A stretch of 46,976 nucleotides of DNA from Parcubacteria group bacterium (GCA_041660065.1 JBAZXC010000007.1:1-46976); one strand, 5' to 3'. Shown: positions 448 through 28,185, numbered from the stretch's first letter. A program made the numbers and translations. Notes: generated from the letters alone by a model not told the origin.

Positions 448-476
448 TGTGGATTCCCGCCTTCGCGGGAATGACA
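448..476 (-). repeat. GTCAT-headed hairpin repeat (stem ATTCCCGC/GCGGGAAT, loop CTTC)
   Basis: Reverse complement reads TGTCATTCCCGCGAAGGCGGGAATCCACA. Same unit as 21947..21992 but without the insert. Confidence 0.85.
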
Positions 477-4246: not shown

Positions 4247-5449
4247 ATGGAAAATACAAAGATCAAAATGATCGCAATAGGAACGCTTGCTATTGTGGCT
4301 TTTTTTGCCACCTATTTTTTTATCGCCCACAAAAATAACAAAGAAAATATCGCAAATCAATTCAAGCCAAATGGCGTTTCTCTCATTTCGCAAAACAACA
4401 ATGAATTTACACTAAACCTTGTATTTAATGGTGGAGACAAACCTGGCATTTCCAGTATCAGGTATGTTGCTCTCCTCTATAAAGTCAGTGACAATGGGGA
4501 GATTATGGGAGATTCTCCGATGGATACAAAGAGCTATGATGATCACATCATTATCGGCAAAAATGATGGAAAATCTATCACAAAAAACATATCATACGTT
4601 GCGCCGGATTATCTTGATGGAAAGTATGTACTGGTTGTGAATTATCTTGCAGAATCCGGTAATCAGATCGATTCTTTTATCGTGGGCAATGTCAATTTAC
4701 AAAGTCAAAACACCGGTTTTCTTGAGATCCTTCCAGATACATGTTTTCTCCAAGTAGAAGGAGAAGATCCAAATATCAATCACGCCAATGGACAAGGTGT
4801 TGATATCAAAAGGGACGAAAACATCATTGTCACCTGCACTGTAAAAAACCATTTTGATAAAGAAGTGACTACCAATGTAAAATTTAAAAACTTTTTTATC
4901 ACGCATGAATTAAACGAGTCTGTGGAGCAGGAAGGATTAACTTTCAGCACGGTTTCATTTGATGCAGATGTAACAAAAAACATTTCTCTCTCAATCGCAA
5001 AGGCACTTGTGCCACAAGCATATGATGTCGGTCTTTATCTCACGGATACTTCCGGCACACAGATCTCAAACATGGCATACTTTCACTATGTCATTGCAGG
5101 AGAAAGCGCACGCATTCTCAATGCAACACTGGACAGCGATCATTATGCGCAAAACACACCGATCACAGCAACGATATCCTATGGCGGTTCAGCGGACAAT
5201 TTTGATGGCGCACGACTCGGTGGCACAAAAAATGAAAAATTAACTGCAGAGATCGATGTGCGCAATCAAGCAGGTCAAAGTTGTCTGGCAGAAGAAAAGA
5301 TCACTGATCTCAGTACGGAAAAGATCGTTGATACAAATATTGTAATGAATGCAACAAGAGAATGTGCCAATCCTTTTATCGTGGCAACGATCCGCGGAAA
5401 GGATGGTGTAGTATTGGATACGAGAACATTTTTGCGTGATACTAAATAA
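4247..5449 (+). CDS. Hypothetical membrane-anchored extracytoplasmic protein (N-terminal TM, beta-rich)
   Basis: 400-aa ORF with signal-anchor IAIGTLAIVAFFATYFFIA. Extended -10 TGaTATAAT at 4212-4220. No recognisable family. Confidence 0.75.
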   Translation: MENTKIKMIAIGTLAIVAFFATYFFIAHKNNKENIANQFKPNGVSLISQNNNEFTLNLVFNGGDKPGISSIRYVALLYKVSDNGEIMGDSPMDTKSYDDHIIIGKNDGKSITKNISYVAPDYLDGKYVLVVNYLAESGNQIDSFIVGNVNLQSQNTGFLEILPDTCFLQVEGEDPNINHANGQGVDIKRDENIIVTCTVKNHFDKEVTTNVKFKNFFITHELNESVEQEGLTFSTVSFDADVTKNISLSIAKALVPQAYDVGLYLTDTSGTQISNMAYFHYVIAGESARILNATLDSDHYAQNTPITATISYGGSADNFDGARLGGTKNEKLTAEIDVRNQAGQSCLAEEKITDLSTEKIVDTNIVMNATRECANPFIVATIRGKDGVVLDTRTFLRDTK

Positions 5450-5453
5450 CTCT

Positions 5454-7289
5454 ATGACATACAAAAATATGATCATCAAAAAACAATGCAATATCTTTGG
5501 CGCAATATTATTTGTCAGTATTCTTTTTGTCGGAGTACTGATCGGCACAGAAAATGCGCGTGCATGGTGTACGGGCAATTATGAGGATCTCGGTTGGTGT
5601 GCCAGTGGAAATACGAAGCGCTTTTATTATGATGGAAGCAACCAATGTGTCAATGAACCGTGTGGTAACTGCAATTTCCCAAAATGCGGTACTGCAAATG
5701 GTGGAACATTTACAACTGCGCCCGTGGCCACCACTGCGAACTATGCTGCGACATGGGGACCTCAACCACTGTGTGGTGAATGGCGTAATGGTGCAAGTGC
5801 GGTTACGCTTGTTGGTTCTAAATGGAAGTGGACATGTCAAGCGAGCCCCTATAGTCTCAAAGTAATAAATTGTTCAGCGACAAAACCGCCACCAGTAGTT
5901 AATGGTGTGTGCGGGCCAGCAAATGGTGGTAGCTATCAAACACAACCAACATATGGTTTATGTGCAGCAGGGACTGTTATGGACATGGGAGTGGCTACAT
6001 TGTGGGATGGATGGTCTTGGTGGTGCAGTGGTTCGGGCGGGGGATCAAGTCAAGGGTGTGGTGCAGGCAAAATCACGGTAATGTGTGGCACCTTAAATGG
6101 GAGGACATATCTCGCAACTGATACAGCGTGGGGAACTGGTACGTTTTGTGGCGGAGGATATTCTATTCCCGCTTCTCCAGCATTCCCGGCACAAGGGGGT
6201 AGTACCGGGTGGCAGTGTACCGATGCAATGGGCTCTCAAGCGTGGTGTGTAGCATATCGTGCTTTACCTGTTGTATATACCTGTACGGGTACACCGCCAC
6301 AAGATGCTTTGAGATGTTCTGGCGATGACACAGGTCTTACAGCTAATACTGCATGGCAACAAGTGACATCGTGTACTGATGCGACAAAATGTGAATACAT
6401 GATGCCATCGTACTCTTGTACCGGTGGCAATCCACCACAAGGCGCAATGTGGTGTGCAGGCGATGACACAGGTCTTACAGCTAATACTGCATGGCAACAA
6501 GTGGCATCGTGTACTGATGCGACAAAATGTGAATATATCATGCCATCGTATTCTTGTACCGGTGGCAATCCACCGCAAGGTGCGATATGGTGCACAGATG
6601 ACAATGCAGGTCTCACAGCGGATACAGCATGGCAACAAGTGACATCGTGTACTGATGTGAGAAAATGTGAATACACGATGCCGTCATGTGGACCCGATAA
6701 CGGTGTATTAGTAAATAATCGACCGACCGATCCGGGGCTTTGTAGTGCGGATAGCACGTCAAGTGAGGTCACATTTGACGCAAGAGGTAATTGGCATTGG
6801 ACATGCACGCATACCAGCGTAGAATCAGGGTCGCTTGCGGTAAATTGTGAAGCGCCATCATGTCTTACAACTATGCCGGTCGATCTCCAGCCATACGTAT
6901 ATTTTAACTCTGATGGCAATCCAAATAATGCTGTGGCAACCGTCACGTGTCCAAATGTCTGCTGTGCTATTGATAGCAGTAACGGTGCAATAACTGTCTG
7001 TAATAGCGATCCTGCAGCAGGTCTGATCCCTGTATTTCCGGGAAGTCGTTCTTATCCTGCCGAATGCTGGTTTGACAATGACCACAATCGCACTAATGAC
7101 AGCAATGAGCCGAAAATATCATACCATCCGGGACGAACGATCAGCACGATGTGTACTGCACGTTCGTGCAGAAGTCAGGGGGAATGTCAGGCATTGCCAC
7201 AAGCGGCAAATACAGCACAGGCATGCAAAAGTACATGCAATTCTGATGCAGATTGTTCCAAGGGTCGCATGATCGAAACGCGACCGTAA
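5454..7289 (+). CDS. Secreted Cys-rich repeat protein (signal peptide, four CG-x-NG...W-x-W-x-C modules, three 46-aa tandem repeats, Cys-rich tail)
   Basis: Signal-like FGAILFVSILFVGVLIGTENARA. Cysteines are regularly spaced throughout. The listed ORF begins with GTG 5436 inside the upstream gene; ATG 5454 or 5469 is more likely. Confidence 0.8.
   Translation: MTYKNMIIKKQCNIFGAILFVSILFVGVLIGTENARAWCTGNYEDLGWCASGNTKRFYYDGSNQCVNEPCGNCNFPKCGTANGGTFTTAPVATTANYAATWGPQPLCGEWRNGASAVTLVGSKWKWTCQASPYSLKVINCSATKPPPVVNGVCGPANGGSYQTQPTYGLCAAGTVMDMGVATLWDGWSWWCSGSGGGSSQGCGAGKITVMCGTLNGRTYLATDTAWGTGTFCGGGYSIPASPAFPAQGGSTGWQCTDAMGSQAWCVAYRALPVVYTCTGTPPQDALRCSGDDTGLTANTAWQQVTSCTDATKCEYMMPSYSCTGGNPPQGAMWCAGDDTGLTANTAWQQVASCTDATKCEYIMPSYSCTGGNPPQGAIWCTDDNAGLTADTAWQQVTSCTDVRKCEYTMPSCGPDNGVLVNNRPTDPGLCSADSTSSEVTFDARGNWHWTCTHTSVESGSLAVNCEAPSCLTTMPVDLQPYVYFNSDGNPNNAVATVTCPNVCCAIDSSNGAITVCNSDPAAGLIPVFPGSRSYPAECWFDNDHNRTNDSNEPKISYHPGRTISTMCTARSCRSQGECQALPQAANTAQACKSTCNSDADCSKGRMIETRP
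6276..6686 (+). repeat. In-frame tandem repeat, 3 copies (135/138/138 bp), inside the Cys-rich protein gene
   Basis: Copies start at 6276, 6411 and 6549. The string ggcgatgacacaggtcttacagctaatactgcatggcaacaagtg recurs exactly 138 bp apart (6321 and 6459). Confidence 0.9.
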
Positions 7290-14878: not shown

Positions 14879-14965
14879 TGGTGCCTCGGGAGAGACTCGA
14901 ACTCTCACATCCTTGCGAATACTGGATTTTGAGTCCAGCGCGTCTACCAATTCCGCCACCGAGGC
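14879..14965 (-). tRNA. tRNA-Leu (anticodon CAA), class II with long variable arm, CCA encoded
   Basis: Minus-strand read: GCCTCGG TG GCG GAATTGGTAGA CGC G CTGGA CTCAAAA TCCAG TATTCGCAAGGATGT GAGAG TTCGAGT CTCTC CCGAGGC A CCA. All four stems pair. Confidence 0.95.
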
Positions 14966-14969
14966 ATAA

Positions 14970-15212
14970 TTATTTTATGTTTCGTTTTATCCACTCTTTG
15001 CCACAGCCACTTTTGAGAAACTTTTCTCGCAAACGTGCAGTCGGTCTATCGTTATACTTTTCTGTTAAAACAGTATTAAATGGTGCATACGGCCTTGTGG
15101 TTTTATTTTGTCCACAGTTGTGTTCCTCCATCCTTCGTTGGATATTATTTGTTATGCCAACATAAATATACGATTTTGTATTGCTGGAAATAACATAGAC
15201 GTAATATGCCAT
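14970..15212 (-). CDS. GIY-YIG nuclease family protein (small, YhbQ/URI-like)
   Basis: MAYYVYVISS..SYIYVGITNNIQRRMEEHN carries the GIY/YIG, Arg and Glu motifs. The stop codon lies 4 nt from the tRNA 5' end. The listed 100-aa ORF (to 15272) adds a translation of the tRNA fragment and the palindrome. Confidence 0.85.
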   Translation of the reverse strand: MAYYVYVISSNTKSYIYVGITNNIQRRMEEHNCGQNKTTRPYAPFNTVLTEKYNDRPTARLREKFLKSGCGKEWIKRNIK

Positions 15213-15226
15213 ATTGTTATAATATT

Positions 15227-15272
15227 GTCTACCAACCTGCCTGCCGGCAGGCAGGTTCCGCCACCGAGGCAT
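15227..15272 (-). repeat. Duplicated 5' fragment of tRNA-Leu (acceptor 5' strand plus D-arm), interrupted in the D-loop by the 20-bp palindrome
   Basis: Minus strand: AT GCCTCGGTGGCGGAA [CCTGCCTGCCGGCAGGCAGG] TTGGTAGAC. It is identical to tRNA positions 1-24 plus 2 upstream nt (14942-14967). Confidence 0.9.
15234..15257. repeat. Perfect 24-bp palindrome AACCTGCCTGCCGGCAGGCAGGTT (20-bp core at 15236-15255)
   Basis: Self-complementary. The core recurs at 21962-21981 and 28153-28172, and a split copy forms the outer arms of 28141-28185. Confidence 0.95.
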
Positions 15273-21127: not shown

Positions 21128-21763
21128 TTATTGATGGTGCTGAAGAATGACTGTGGCACGATCGTATGCACCGTATACGATCTCTCGTAATGTTGGGATG
21201 TGCTCCGTATCAGAAATTTCTCGCAGGGCACCCTCTGCTTGTTGTAGAATGGTGTTGACATAGTCCTTGTCGACGTGTTTACCTGTCGCGAGCGCGAGGA
21301 CGATGGATGATGCTTCGAGTAAGATCTCAGGCTCTTTACACTCTTGTGCAAGAACCTCCAAAGCAGTTCTCATATCATTTCCACAGATATCCTTGTAATA
21401 GTGAGTGAGAGGAACCTGATCCCAATCTACTTTTTCAACTGTCTCGGCGCAGACGCGTATGAGATTGTTTCGAATCATCTTTTTGACAGAAGTTTCATAC
21501 GTTGTGTCTATGGACAAGAGATGTATGTGATAGAGATGTTCGAATTTCGTTTTAATGGGAGTGACAACGATCACGCCTATGATCACAGCACCTTTTGAGT
21601 CATCATGACACGTGATGATGTAGCCATGTTTTCGCAGTGACTGCCAATACGCCCACGTTTGATCTGACTCTTTCGGTCTCACGATGCGTAGGAGACGATT
21701 AAGTTCCTCTGTACATCGCTCCACAACGGCATTAATGCCTATCGAAAATGATTGCGGTTTCAT
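21128..21763 (-). CDS. Hypothetical protein
   Basis: 211 aa from ATG 21763, preceded by GGAGGAGG. No recognisable family. Confidence 0.7.
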   Translation of the reverse strand: MKPQSFSIGINAVVERCTEELNRLLRIVRPKESDQTWAYWQSLRKHGYIITCHDDSKGAVIIGVIVVTPIKTKFEHLYHIHLLSIDTTYETSVKKMIRNNLIRVCAETVEKVDWDQVPLTHYYKDICGNDMRTALEVLAQECKEPEILLEASSIVLALATGKHVDKDYVNTILQQAEGALREISDTEHIPTLREIVYGAYDRATVILQHHQ

Positions 21764-21883
21764 CGCCTCCTCCTTTTTTGAAGTTGTTGTAAATGTTAAA
21801 CAACGATATTGTGCCCTCACTGTAGCACCATACGTGTGTTTTTACAATATATAGAAAAAAGGCAGAAGGGTGGATTTTTTAGA

Positions 21884-21901
21884 TCGGTGGAAGGGTAGAC
21901 G
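21884..21901 (+). repeat. Degenerate tRNA-Leu 5'-like fragment
   Basis: TCGGTGG-aag-GGTAGACG matches tRNA-Leu TCGGTGG-cggaatt-GGTAGACG (15 of 15 flanking nt, D-loop 4 nt shorter). Confidence 0.5.
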
Positions 21902-21946
21902 TAAAAATGTGAAAGATTGTTCAAATTGCGAGCGTGAAAACCCTTT

Positions 21947-21992
21947 GTCATTCCCGCGAAGCCTGCCTGCCGGTAGGCAGGGCGGGAATCTA
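21947..21992 (+). repeat. Composite repeat: a GTCAT hairpin unit with the 20-bp palindrome inserted in its loop
   Basis: GTCATTCCCGCGAAG [CCTGCCTGCCGGTAGGCAGG] GCGGGAATCTAG. Without the bracketed 20 nt it matches the unit at 448-476. Confidence 0.9.
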
Positions 21993-22130
21993 GTATCGGC
22001 ATTCCCATTCCGATTTTTCGAGGACAAACTTTACGGGAATGACAAAATGATCGTATGTGGAAAAATAGTAGAATGATGATGTATTTTCAGCAAAAATGAG
22101 ATTTTCAAACTTGCTTTCTTGAAAAAAATC

Positions 22131-22159
22131 TTGACAAAATGGTAATTTAGGTGTATAAT
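22131..22159 (+). promoter_or_regulatory. Consensus sigma70 promoter
   Basis: TTGACA (22131-22136), 17-nt spacer, TATAAT (22154-22159). Confidence 0.7.
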
Positions 22160-22348
22160 ATTCAACTATAGTCATTTTACAACTTATTGTTTGCTACAGC
22201 CAAAAGAGGCTTCATTTTGTTGATTTTGAAGGCAATTTTTGGCTGTGGCAAAACCTTGTCTGCCGGAAGGGAGGCGTTGCGGTGGAGTCAAAACAGCGAA
22301 ACTTTTTATTGTGCCGCGTATCATGCGACCACACAAGGAGGACTTGCG

Positions 22349-23038
22349 ATGAAAAAAGCAACCCTAAAACCCGTTGAAACAATGACAGTGAGGCAATTGA
22401 AAAAGTTCATTGCCATTTTTGAAAACTTGCCGTCAAAAAAAGTGCAAGACATTCTCGAATCGGGCTTGCTGACGGATATTCGCGATGGGAATATGCATTT
22501 GGTTGATCGCGATGCAATTCGTAAATTGCTCGGTCTCGCGCCACTTGAAGCGTGGTTTTACTGTGCCGACGTTGGTGTAGAAATACCCGCTTCGTCTGAG
22601 CCGTTCATCGCAAAAGAAAAATTTGTGGTGAATACCCGTGATGATGCAAAGGTAAAAATATCTGGTCTTGGGGCAAATTTTGAGAATAACTTTCTGTCCA
22701 AGAAAGAAAAGCCATGTGCATCATCCATAGTGTACGGTTGTAAGTTATTGAGAAGATTGACAAGCAAACAAATCCGTGAAGAGCTTGATCGTGATGACAA
22801 GCTTGAAACCACCCTGTATGAAATGTTTTTTATGCTGGAAAAACAGGGAAACGGTGAGAGTGGATCTTTACGTACCAACGGCTCTGCGAATATTTTCTTT
22901 ATTCGCGATGACAAAGGTGACCTTTGTGCGGTCCGCTGTCGCTGGTATGACGATGGGTGGGGCGTGCGTGCCTACTCCGTCGATGATCCGGATGAGTGGG
23001 ATGATGGCTCTCAGGTCTTCTCCCGCGATTCCCTCTGA
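22349..23038 (+). CDS. Hypothetical protein
   Basis: 229 aa from ATG 22349, preceded by AAGGAGG. The 283-aa version from 22187 has no RBS and runs through a leader hairpin. No recognisable family. Confidence 0.7.
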   Translation: MKKATLKPVETMTVRQLKKFIAIFENLPSKKVQDILESGLLTDIRDGNMHLVDRDAIRKLLGLAPLEAWFYCADVGVEIPASSEPFIAKEKFVVNTRDDAKVKISGLGANFENNFLSKKEKPCASSIVYGCKLLRRLTSKQIREELDRDDKLETTLYEMFFMLEKQGNGESGSLRTNGSANIFFIRDDKGDLCAVRCRWYDDGWGVRAYSVDDPDEWDDGSQVFSRDSL

Positions 23039-25747: not shown

Positions 25748-25794
25748 GTATGTATGTGGTATAATAATCATATATGAGACCATTTAATTCTCAT

Positions 25795-25864
25795 GTCATA
25801 CTGAACTTGTTTCAGTATCTATATATAGCATAAGCGTGAGGTCCTGAAACAAGTTCAGGATGAC
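25795..25864. repeat. Two GTCAT-headed hairpin units in inverted orientation (25795-25819 and 25840-25864)
   Basis: GTCATACTGAACTTGTTTCAGTATC and, reverse-complemented, GTCATCCTGAACTTGTTTCAGGACC. The 15-nt cores are exact complements. Confidence 0.9.
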
Positions 25865-25923
25865 AGAAGTTTGCTTTCAATAATCGCTTATATAAAAATA
25901 ACATTTATATTAAATCAGTTATT

Positions 25924-28140: not shown

Positions 28141-28185
28141 AACCTTGCCTACCCTGCCTACCGGCAGGCAGGCGGCAGGCAGGTT
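28141..28185. repeat. Self-nested palindrome: a 20-bp core inserted at the centre of another copy of the same palindrome
   Basis: AACCTTGCCTAC [CCTGCCTACCGGCAGGCAGG] CGGCAGGCAGGTT. Removing the bracketed 20 nt restores a 25-nt copy of the 15234-15257 palindrome. Confidence 0.9.

Follow-up and report, generated by a model that had tools for sequence, protein, structure and literature searches.

Neisseria meningitidis encodes SsnA, a single-domain GIY-YIG enzyme of 94 aa (CDD cd10448) that binds and cuts single-stranded DNA (ssDNA) only, strand-specifically, next to the hairpin repeat NTS CGTCATTCCCGCGMAVGCGGGAATCYRG (Chenal et al., Nat Commun 2025, PMC11893778). Ssn-related motifs (SRM) were located near the gene in 71% of SsnA homologues. 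The authors remarked on the repeat-gene-repeat layout, which is like that of an insertion sequence (IS), left open how the repeats multiply, and offered mobility as a hypothesis only; tRNA genes are not mentioned in that paper. Repetitive extragenic palindromes (REPs) have been documented in the centre of palindromic targets, as has cleavage at GTAG by REP-associated tyrosine transposases (RAYTs) (PMC3733652), and SegB of T4 is the product of a GIY-YIG homing gene in a tRNA gene cluster (PMC2330249). Here, we describe a 20-bp palindrome, CCTGCCTGCCGGCAGGCAGG, in a 46,976-nucleotide stretch of DNA from a Parcubacteria group bacterium (GCA_041660065.1, JBAZXC010000007.1:1-46976; hereafter, the window), and its association with a small GIY-YIG nuclease gene lodged next to a tRNA gene. 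On balance, we favour reading the palindrome as a self-contained hairpin repeat and the partner of one tRNA-lodged clade of single-domain GIY-YIG proteins (77-100 aa), by analogy a pair of the Ssn/SRM type.

Palindrome copies and exact insertion

The original prediction, made from the sequence of the window, placed copies of the palindrome at 15236, 21962 and 28153 and added a split copy. All were recovered, the last of the three being nested in the fourth, outer copy (Table 1; a caret marks the insertion junction throughout). Compared to the 20-mer, the outer copy shows the G8->A change and an additional T, and its T13 form has the same orientation as in the inner copy. Both orientations occur, as had been predicted, with the copies at 21962-21981 and 28153-28172 being mutual reverse complements. 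The folded 20-mer formed an 8-bp stem closed by a CCGG loop (~ -8 kcal/mol). In the one-base variant, the hairpin of the GGTAGG strand, with a G.T wobble pair, reached -7 kcal/mol, compared to -6.1 kcal/mol for the complementary strand. No match to the 20-mer at ≤3 mismatches appeared in 100 dinucleotide shuffles of the window. Upstream of an ATG at 22350, we also observed a possible decayed copy of uncertain membership, for which 200 shuffles gave no match at ≤4 mismatches.

Removal of exactly 20 nt had been expected to restore a hairpin in every case. For copy 2, TGTCATTCCCGCGAAG^palindrome^GCGGGAATCTAG, the healed sequence was the GTCAT hairpin that is found uninterrupted elsewhere in the window, and healing of copy 3 gave the palindrome itself, i.e. 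the outer copy. For copy 1, which reads ATGCCTCGGTGGCGGAA^palindrome^TTGGTAGAC on the minus strand, the expectation stood only in part. The healed sequence equalled the first 26 nt of the intact tRNA-Leu(CAA) (2 leader and 24 tRNA nucleotides), but the fragment ends before the 3′ half of the D-stem and alone forms no intact hairpin.

Empty counterparts of filled sites were sought by joining 12 nt from each side of a copy and searching for the product in the same locus. About 15 uninterrupted paralogues were found within single loci (L006, L025, L030, L033, L043, L056, L057, L070, two in L093, L096, L130 and two in the window), and in every pair the 20-mer was the sole difference. Partial tRNA copies and the adjacent intact tRNAs provided further filled and empty pairs, with ~10 distinct insertion points in tRNA fragments for which the neighbouring intact tRNA gives the uninterrupted sequence. 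Duplicated flanking bases, said to be absent, were indeed seen at none of the window copies, and the ~15 paralogous empty sites agree in showing an exact gain of 20 nt. The element therefore does not fit miniature inverted-repeat transposable elements, which carry terminal inverted repeats, leave a target-site duplication and are typically >50 bp: it measures 20 bp, and no duplication was seen at the ~15 pairs. Moreover, the palindrome did not extend into its flanks, positions -1 and +1 being complementary in 34% of copies, which is near chance. These pairs may constitute the first base-level evidence that Ssn-type repeats insert as units.

The nested copy was also present in an independent sample (SRR18595301), where the short-read (Logan) contigs from what is taken as the same organism end inside the palindrome (end of L121 at 2323; start of L122). 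As the read set is independent, the nested copy cannot be an artefact of assembly or adaptors, and the position of the contig breaks indicates that such elements fragment short-read assemblies.

The GIY-YIG gene and its tRNA cassette

Copy 1 interrupts a duplicated 5′ piece of tRNA-Leu(CAA). On the minus strand, the tRNA fragment with copy 1 is followed by a 14-nt spacer, an 80-aa open reading frame (ORF) and the intact tRNA-Leu(CAA). The ORF starts 23 nt past copy 1 and ends with a stop codon 4 nt short of the intact tRNA. The encoded protein matched only PF01541 (and the related T5orf172), with no extra domain in its 80 aa, and the catalytic-type residues Y6, Y17, R27, H31 and E63 were invariant across 15 homologues. 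Weak matches to the UPF0213 structures 1zg2 and 1ywl were also obtained (E=7e-4).

To examine the association from the protein side, ten homologue clusters were picked on protein similarity alone (53-81% identity), and their contigs were then inspected. The palindrome itself, or a variant that is decayed or 19 nt long, was present in a partial tRNA copy by the gene, within ~100 nt, in 10/10 clusters (P0002/L203, P0004/L204-6, P0006/L274-6, P0010/L219, P0014/L220, P0017/L207-12, P0020/L221-2, P0025/L213-8, P0027/L277 and P0031/L223-5). Copies flanked the gene on both sides in L219, L223 and L276, and the cassettes included tandem triplets (L219) and nested doublets (L207). Conversely, GIY-YIG was the only protein family that recurred ≤300 nt from the palindrome (window, L025, L052, L089, L093); all-versus-all clustering of neighbouring ORFs in 120 listed palindrome loci returned no other family except ParB, which appeared via synteny. 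Copy 1 is thus no chance occupant of the cassette that it had been noted to sit in, the displaced tRNA fragment being a recurrent habitat of the palindrome.

The association followed the relatedness of the protein. Homologues with ≥37% identity carried the palindrome, whereas those of L169, L170 and L138 (≤35% identity) and the partial domain of L112 did not. The distant GIY-YIG genes of L169 (8268-8590), L170 (9459-9790) and L112 (2200-2571) lie in tRNA duplications with other GC-rich hairpins, namely CCCGCCGTAGGCGGG, CCCGCCGATTGGCGGG and CTCGCCGTAGGCGAG, e.g. of the CCCGCC-GTAG-GCGGG type. This pattern, read from sequence comparison, resembles cognate pairing and hints at clade-specific pairs of nuclease and hairpin. 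A second palindrome family (CCCGCC-loop-GGCGGG) was highly heterogeneous across the loci examined. A profile of the clade retrieved 5440 protein clusters, and the names among the best 120 of these (Patescibacteria, Ignavibacteria, Chitinophagaceae, Bacteroidales, Gracilimonas) overlap the taxa that bear the palindrome; none of the 120 was from Neisseria.

The recurrent unit consists of a partial tRNA copy with one or more palindromes, the GIY-YIG ORF and an intact tRNA, and a mirror-image form has a 3′ tRNA fragment after the ORF (L221, L169). Its hosts were genes for tRNA-Leu (CAA, TAA, TAG, GAG), Lys, Arg, Met, Gly, Val and Gln in several phyla, with ~10 different insertion points over all cassettes. 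The tRNA fragment was identical to the intact tRNA in the window, L052 and L093, and differed at several positions in L207, L213 and L223. Fragments with the palindrome and no ORF were found in L003, L006 and L044. In the syntenic relative L123 (75% MgsA identity), the tRNA-Leu by parA has neither cassette nor fragment nor palindrome, which indicates that the cassette is itself an insertion. The layout suggests a previously undescribed, tRNA-targeting selfish cassette; we found no description of the tRNA-nested GIY-YIG arrangement or of the 20-mer in the literature searched.

Several cassettes were elaborated further. L277 (405-1393) contains three tandem GIY-YIG cassettes with a 296-bp period ahead of an intact tRNA-Leu(TAA), each with its own tRNA fragment and a 19-nt variant of the palindrome. 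A pseudo-tRNA-Leu in L219 (1070-1230) carries three tandem palindromes at one D-arm site and a variant in the T-arm, and that of L243 (240-390) has one palindrome in the D-loop and two copies in the T-arm. In variants such as CCTGCCTGCCGATAGGTAGA from these pseudo-tRNA-Leu copies, G.T wobble pairing is preserved on the tRNA sense strand alone. In L089 (2751-4892), a GIY-YIG domain and the palindrome lie in-frame in an open frame of 714 codons, with a decayed copy ~130 nt upstream, possibly because a cassette entered a larger gene.

Distribution across genomes and viruses

An exact scan for the 20-mer or its R8/Y13 variants, with one genome per species (596 Gb), located the palindrome in at least 120 genome loci from many phyla, compared to a calculated chance expectation of ~2 copies for uniform base composition. 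According to the record titles, the matches listed include the isolates Winogradskyella echinorum, Flagellimonas yonaguniensis and Olivibacter oleidegradans, a complete and curated genome of WWE3, and genomes assembled from metagenomes under the labels Patescibacteria, Saccharibacteria, Omnitrophota, Planctomycetes, Nitrospiraceae, Ignavibacteria, Bdellovibrionales, and gamma- and delta-proteobacteria. Moreover, 48 predicted viral contigs carried the palindrome, some in multiple copies. Flanking sequences were unrelated between loci. The loci had a median GC content of 43%, and 74% of copies fell outside long ORFs, as opposed to 20% of random positions. In 824 kb of window relatives picked regardless of the palindrome, 12 copies with 0-3 mismatches were found, a range that points to a spectrum of birth and decay. 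Chance or artefact as the origin of the matches was ruled out by the shuffles, the public scans and the independent samples.

In some loci, the palindrome occupies one fixed spot in a repeated CTCCCCTCTCC...GGAGAGG / GGGGGTGAGG element (L251 at 977, L252 at 332 and 4512; also L098 and L076), and one viral contig has three copies of this element with the palindrome. Such composite repeats may spread together with the palindrome.

Target sites and strand coupling

The palindrome had been described as always lying in the apical loop of an existing hairpin, which did not survive the census. A perfect flanking stem of ≥7 bp was present at 11% of 125 copies versus 2.3% of intergenic controls (p = 1e-5), and a stem of ≥6 bp at 17% versus 6%. 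By minimum-free-energy folding, the junction fell in a hairpin loop for 22% of copies and 16% of intergenic controls. Among 179 non-redundant sites, junctions with a stem of ≥5 bp were placed at the stem-loop boundary in 10.6% (controls, 4.9%) and inside the loop in 14.5% (controls, 8.0%). Strong hairpins are therefore enriched 2-5 fold, yet account for only ~20% of copies, and hairpin loops and stem-loop junctions are preferred, not obligatory, targets.

Three regularities were stronger than this preference for hairpins, two of them recurrent kinds of target and the third a sequence rule linked to one strand. The palindrome itself served as one kind of target: ~9/130 copies lay in or beside a second copy or half-copy, and at least 5 nested copies (6 with that of the window) shared a single insertion point in the apical CCGG, namely CCG^G (= C^CGG). 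Nesting was also seen for another repeat in L045 (5184-5225), where a different hairpin, CCCGCCTCTGGCGGG, occupies the loop of the hairpin formed by GTCATCCTGA...GAAGGATC; such repeat families may generally nest one hairpin in another. The other kind was tRNA-like (~11/184 healed sites), with junctions at or near arm boundaries, in the D-loop, D-stem, variable loop and T-arm and, within the anticodon arm, at 31^32 and 38^39. In viral contig IMGVR_UViG_3300033148_008720 (L257, 2239-2330), a complete tRNA-Met has the palindrome at the position of a long variable arm and was called as a 92-nt tRNA by ARAGORN. Here, the hairpin may be tolerated as an extra tRNA arm.

To assign a strand to the otherwise symmetrical element, 69 non-redundant copies were oriented by the commonest one-base variant (GGTAGG strand). 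The base at -1 was a purine in 67/69 oriented copies (p = 8e-18), and that at +1 was G or T in 63/69 (p = 4e-13); the junction G^G occurred 28 times and C^C never. Such coupling of a one-base asymmetry to the flanks is unexpected for duplex cut-and-paste of a near-perfect palindrome, and is expected if one strand, folded as a hairpin, enters one specific target strand. The single-strand mechanism that had been proposed thus gains support from the asymmetry of the element being coupled to an asymmetric target, R^K, although the signature is an indirect one.

The T13 strand showed no bias with respect to local GC skew (31 positive, 34 negative) or to the coding direction nearby (33:28). The element thus lacks the replication-fork bias that typifies IS200/IS605, as well as the lagging-strand-template orientation bias of the palindrome-associated transposable elements derived from IS200/IS605. 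In the partial tRNA copies beside GIY-YIG genes, wobble-type variants were on the tRNA sense strand in 7/8 cases. It is possible that the non-template strand of a highly transcribed gene serves as the ssDNA target.

Possible mechanism and alternative explanations

In the mechanism that we propose, the palindrome would travel as a single-stranded hairpin. By analogy with SsnA, the GIY-YIG protein would bind the folded hairpin in ssDNA and could nick it at the hairpin feet, and nick the target at exposed R^K positions, after which a host activity (ligation or copy-choice synthesis) would finish the insertion. Copies would accumulate in displaced tRNA pieces, which offer structured and selectively neutral targets near the site of protein synthesis, and a palindrome splitting a direct repeat may guard the cassette from deletion. 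The nuclease had been put forward as a candidate mobilising factor. Of this proposal, the association stood, with 10/10 protein-picked clusters, while catalysis of palindrome movement by the nuclease is an extension by analogy, which we find plausible but lean slightly against. A bolder version, in which the 20-nt hairpin would be the smallest mobile element known, excised and integrated as ssDNA through GIY-YIG nicks and host joining with no HUH, DDE or recombinase enzyme, seems doubtful to us. It would amount to a new transposition chemistry, with nuclease genes spreading as cassettes that replace tRNA genes and with the hairpin disabling the displaced tRNA copy.

Several observations weigh against the partnership and against movement by the nuclease. 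GIY-YIG enzymes hydrolyse and do not join DNA, so that insertion needs a ligation or copying step. Most copies are far from any such gene: ~95% have none within 8 kb, and a 29.5-kb viral contig has at least 6 palindromes and no GIY-YIG gene, which means that action in trans must be assumed. The ten clusters are related (53-81% identity), several with the shared site GGCGGAA^TTGG, and do not represent ten independent events. The link to tRNA fragments could also arise from targets that are merely neutral and structured. We found no filled and empty polymorphism between strains, the nearest metagenome relatives being ~75% identical with unalignable spacers. The copy in the tRNA-Leu fragment is old, as the same site is common to relatives with 62-81% protein identity. 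Finally, the published SRM search pattern, HGTCWYN(0-2)YYVSBRHN(0-5)WNVSBRGN(0-2)RNCYNB, fits only the GTCAT hairpins and never the 20-mer.

The palindrome could instead be a REP-like element moved in trans by an HUH/Y1 transposase of the RAYT or IS200-like kind, with the GIY-YIG link produced by neutral, hairpin-rich pseudo-tRNA targets. Y1 enzymes are the only proven route to cut and rejoin ssDNA hairpin elements with no target duplication, the common variant of the palindrome creates GTAG, a hallmark of REPs, and insertion into other copies takes place at CG^GTAG, much as REPs are on record in the centres of palindromic targets (PMC3733652). This GTAG, however, is central and not terminal (neither GTAG nor CGTC was found at the ends), and is confined to the C13->T variant, the perfect form having none. 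Y1 ORFs were present within 8 kb in only 3 of the ~120 listed palindrome loci (L010, L047, L073), and no Y1 gene was flanked by palindromes; one unselected relative locus, L198, has a Y1 ORF as well. In L047 (3671-4175, Chitinophagaceae), the ORF of an IS200-like Y1 transposase lies 27 nt past a palindrome, which speaks for such a partner, but this is the single adjacent case and there is no copy on the other side. The balanced GC-skew orientation is unlike IS200/IS605, an identical repeat across phyla is unlike species-specific REP-RAYT pairs, and the neighbouring hairpins vary by GIY-YIG clade, suggesting pairing with the nuclease. Movement by a Y1 enzyme is, in our judgement, improbable.

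We give similarly little credence to the palindrome being immobile alone, i.e. a cis-element of the tRNA-nested cassette (nuclease site, recombination barrier or attenuator) whose solo copies were left behind by cassettes that had inserted and then been lost, or by gene conversion. Such a role would account for a palindrome beside every sampled homologue of the clade, following the tRNA fragment whether it is upstream or downstream of the ORF (L221) and splitting direct repeats able to delete the cassette, and the ORF-less loci L003, L006 and L044 could be relics of this kind. However, solo additions of exactly 20 nt occur in unrelated repeats, terminator loops and other copies with no cassette remnant, no ORF was seen between half-palindromes, and the ~10 sites in tRNA fragments, together with tandem and nested copies (L207, L219, L243), point to repeated independent insertion. 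It is very improbable that the palindrome is a structural element selected by the host (as a terminator, an mRNA stabiliser or a site for protein binding) or a product of chance or artefact, with conservation due to function or contamination. The hairpin is stable, GC-rich and mostly intergenic, and in genomes of 60-70% GC a few hits could be coding sequence matched by chance. In loci of 35-48% GC, however, the palindrome greatly exceeds chance expectation; it keeps no constant position relative to genes, has no Rfam match, and appears in isolates, in a complete genome and at the same site in independent samples. The insertional gain shown by the empty paralogues and the reproducibility across samples largely refute this last explanation. 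We thus retain the partnership of palindrome and tRNA-lodged GIY-YIG clade as our reading of the data.

Other features of the window

The window is part of a bacterial chromosome densely packed with genes (among them pgk, eno, parA and mgsA), and its closest relatives among metagenome contigs share ~75% protein identity. An Rfam scan of the window matched tRNA only and assigned the palindrome to no family. GTCAT-type hairpins are located at 449-476, 529-553, 21946-22045 and 25794-25865, the last being an inverted pair of similar hairpins, and none of them is adjacent to a canonical ssnA-like gene in the window. The region 22140-22350 contains a promoter-like TTGACA and TATAAT followed by a structured leader of ~200 nt that runs to the ATG at 22350, with 16-nt inverted repeats at 22190-22252 ahead of the possible decayed palindrome and with no Rfam match. 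Two ORFs at 21128-23038 are missing from the relative L123. Elsewhere, the long ORF 5436-7289 includes three tandem 138-bp units (6294-6707; 100%, 91% and 68% identity).

Table 1. Coordinates of the palindrome copies and associated features in the window.
Feature	Position	Strand	Description
Palindrome copy 1	15236-15255	.	Perfect 20-mer CCTGCCTGCCGGCAGGCAGG; inserted at GGAA^TTGG, D-loop region of the tRNA-Leu fragment
Palindrome copy 2	21962-21981	+	C13->T variant (GGTAGG on + strand); inserted at GAAG^GCGG
Palindrome copy 3 (inner)	28153-28172	-	G8->A; T13 form on minus strand; inserted at CCG^GTAG of the outer copy
Outer split copy (fourth)	28143-28183	-	CCTTGCCTAC (28143-28152) and CGGCAGGCAGG (28173-28183); pgk-eno spacer
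Possible decayed copy, membership uncertain	22255-22274	+	CTTGTCTGCCGGAAGGGAGG, 4 mismatches; in long leader before ATG at 22350
GTCAT hairpin split by copy 2	21946-21993	+	Healed form (20 nt removed) fits the published SRM search pattern
Uninterrupted paralogue of the GTCAT hairpin	449-476	-	TGTCATTCCCGCGAAGGCGGGAATCCAC; fits the SRM pattern
GIY-YIG nuclease gene	14970-15212	-	80 aa, single domain; Pfam PF01541, E=6.7e-16
tRNA-Leu(CAA), intact	14879-14965	-	Empty-site comparison for copy 1
Duplicated 5′ tRNA-Leu(CAA) fragment	15227-15272	-	Same 26 nt as in the intact gene, interrupted by copy 1

Comparison with known systems

The original prediction saw in the palindrome a logic different from that of REP/RAYT arrangements. 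We disagree on this point, as the logic is analogous, a hairpin repeat with a small ssDNA-acting nuclease, and Ssn/SRM is the closer precedent (PMC11893778). The palindrome shares with REPs, and with the doublets known as REPINs, a small size, high GC content and extragenic location, a proposed movement as an ssDNA hairpin, and a small nuclease gene flanked by the repeat. It differs in having no terminal GTAG/CGTC tag, no nearby RAYT and no REPIN doublets, in not being species-specific, and in a partner that is GIY-YIG and not HUH.

Homing cassettes resemble the tRNA-nested unit in that a small selfish GIY-YIG gene lies at or in tRNA genes and occupies a conserved site in some genomes but not in others (empty in L123). 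Homing enzymes, however, have DNA-binding domains, cut duplex DNA and come with no dispersed 20-bp repeat, whereas the cassette described here brings a partial tRNA duplication peppered with palindromes, and no second, DNA-binding domain was found in the 80 aa of its protein.

The GC clusters and hairpin elements of yeast and sponge mitochondria (PMC4478555, PMC2800124) are likewise short GC-rich hairpin insertions in AT-richer genomes, sometimes nested. They differ from the palindrome in being organellar and lineage-specific in sequence, with no linked nuclease partner. Target-site duplications have been reported for the yeast GC clusters. In Nostoc and Anabaena, small dispersed repeats were reportedly presented as mobile by Elhai et al. 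in 2008, being 21-27-nt hairpins that are said to nest in each other and in other repeats. Their sequence and taxa are unlike those of the palindrome, and we know of no nuclease partner or tRNA-fragment habitat described for them.

The likeness to Ssn/SRM is the most extensive. In both, a single-domain GIY-YIG protein of ~80-100 aa, with intact catalytic residues and no DNA-binding domain, is encoded by a gene linked to a short hairpin repeat that is also dispersed through the genome; strand-directional signals point to ssDNA, and the pair is found across phyla. The window itself has canonical SRM hairpins (449-476 and the healed 21946-21993). We must also note the differences. The palindrome is a perfect 20 bp with no oriented GTCAT head, the nuclease genes lie within tRNA-gene duplications, and sequence evidence is available here for scar-free insertion, self-nesting and an R^K target. 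We found no follow-up to the Ssn paper in the literature that describes the palindrome or the tRNA-nested arrangement.

For the questions of repeat multiplication and unit mobility left by the 2025 Ssn paper, the palindrome provides footprints of insertion at the level of single bases: exactly 20 nt, no duplication, insertion 3′ of a purine, coupling to one strand, and self-nesting. It would also add a second, very simple cognate sequence for a family of small ssDNA-acting nucleases that is of interest for tools. The arrangement of selfish GIY-YIG genes in tRNA genes, with a displaced tRNA piece riddled with hairpins, appears to be undescribed, and 20-bp palindromes of this kind have a practical side, since they break short-read assemblies and can disguise pseudo-tRNAs or add a tRNA arm. 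In terms of its components, the system belongs beside Ssn/SRM as a variant with a different, perfectly palindromic repeat and a tRNA-nested gene.

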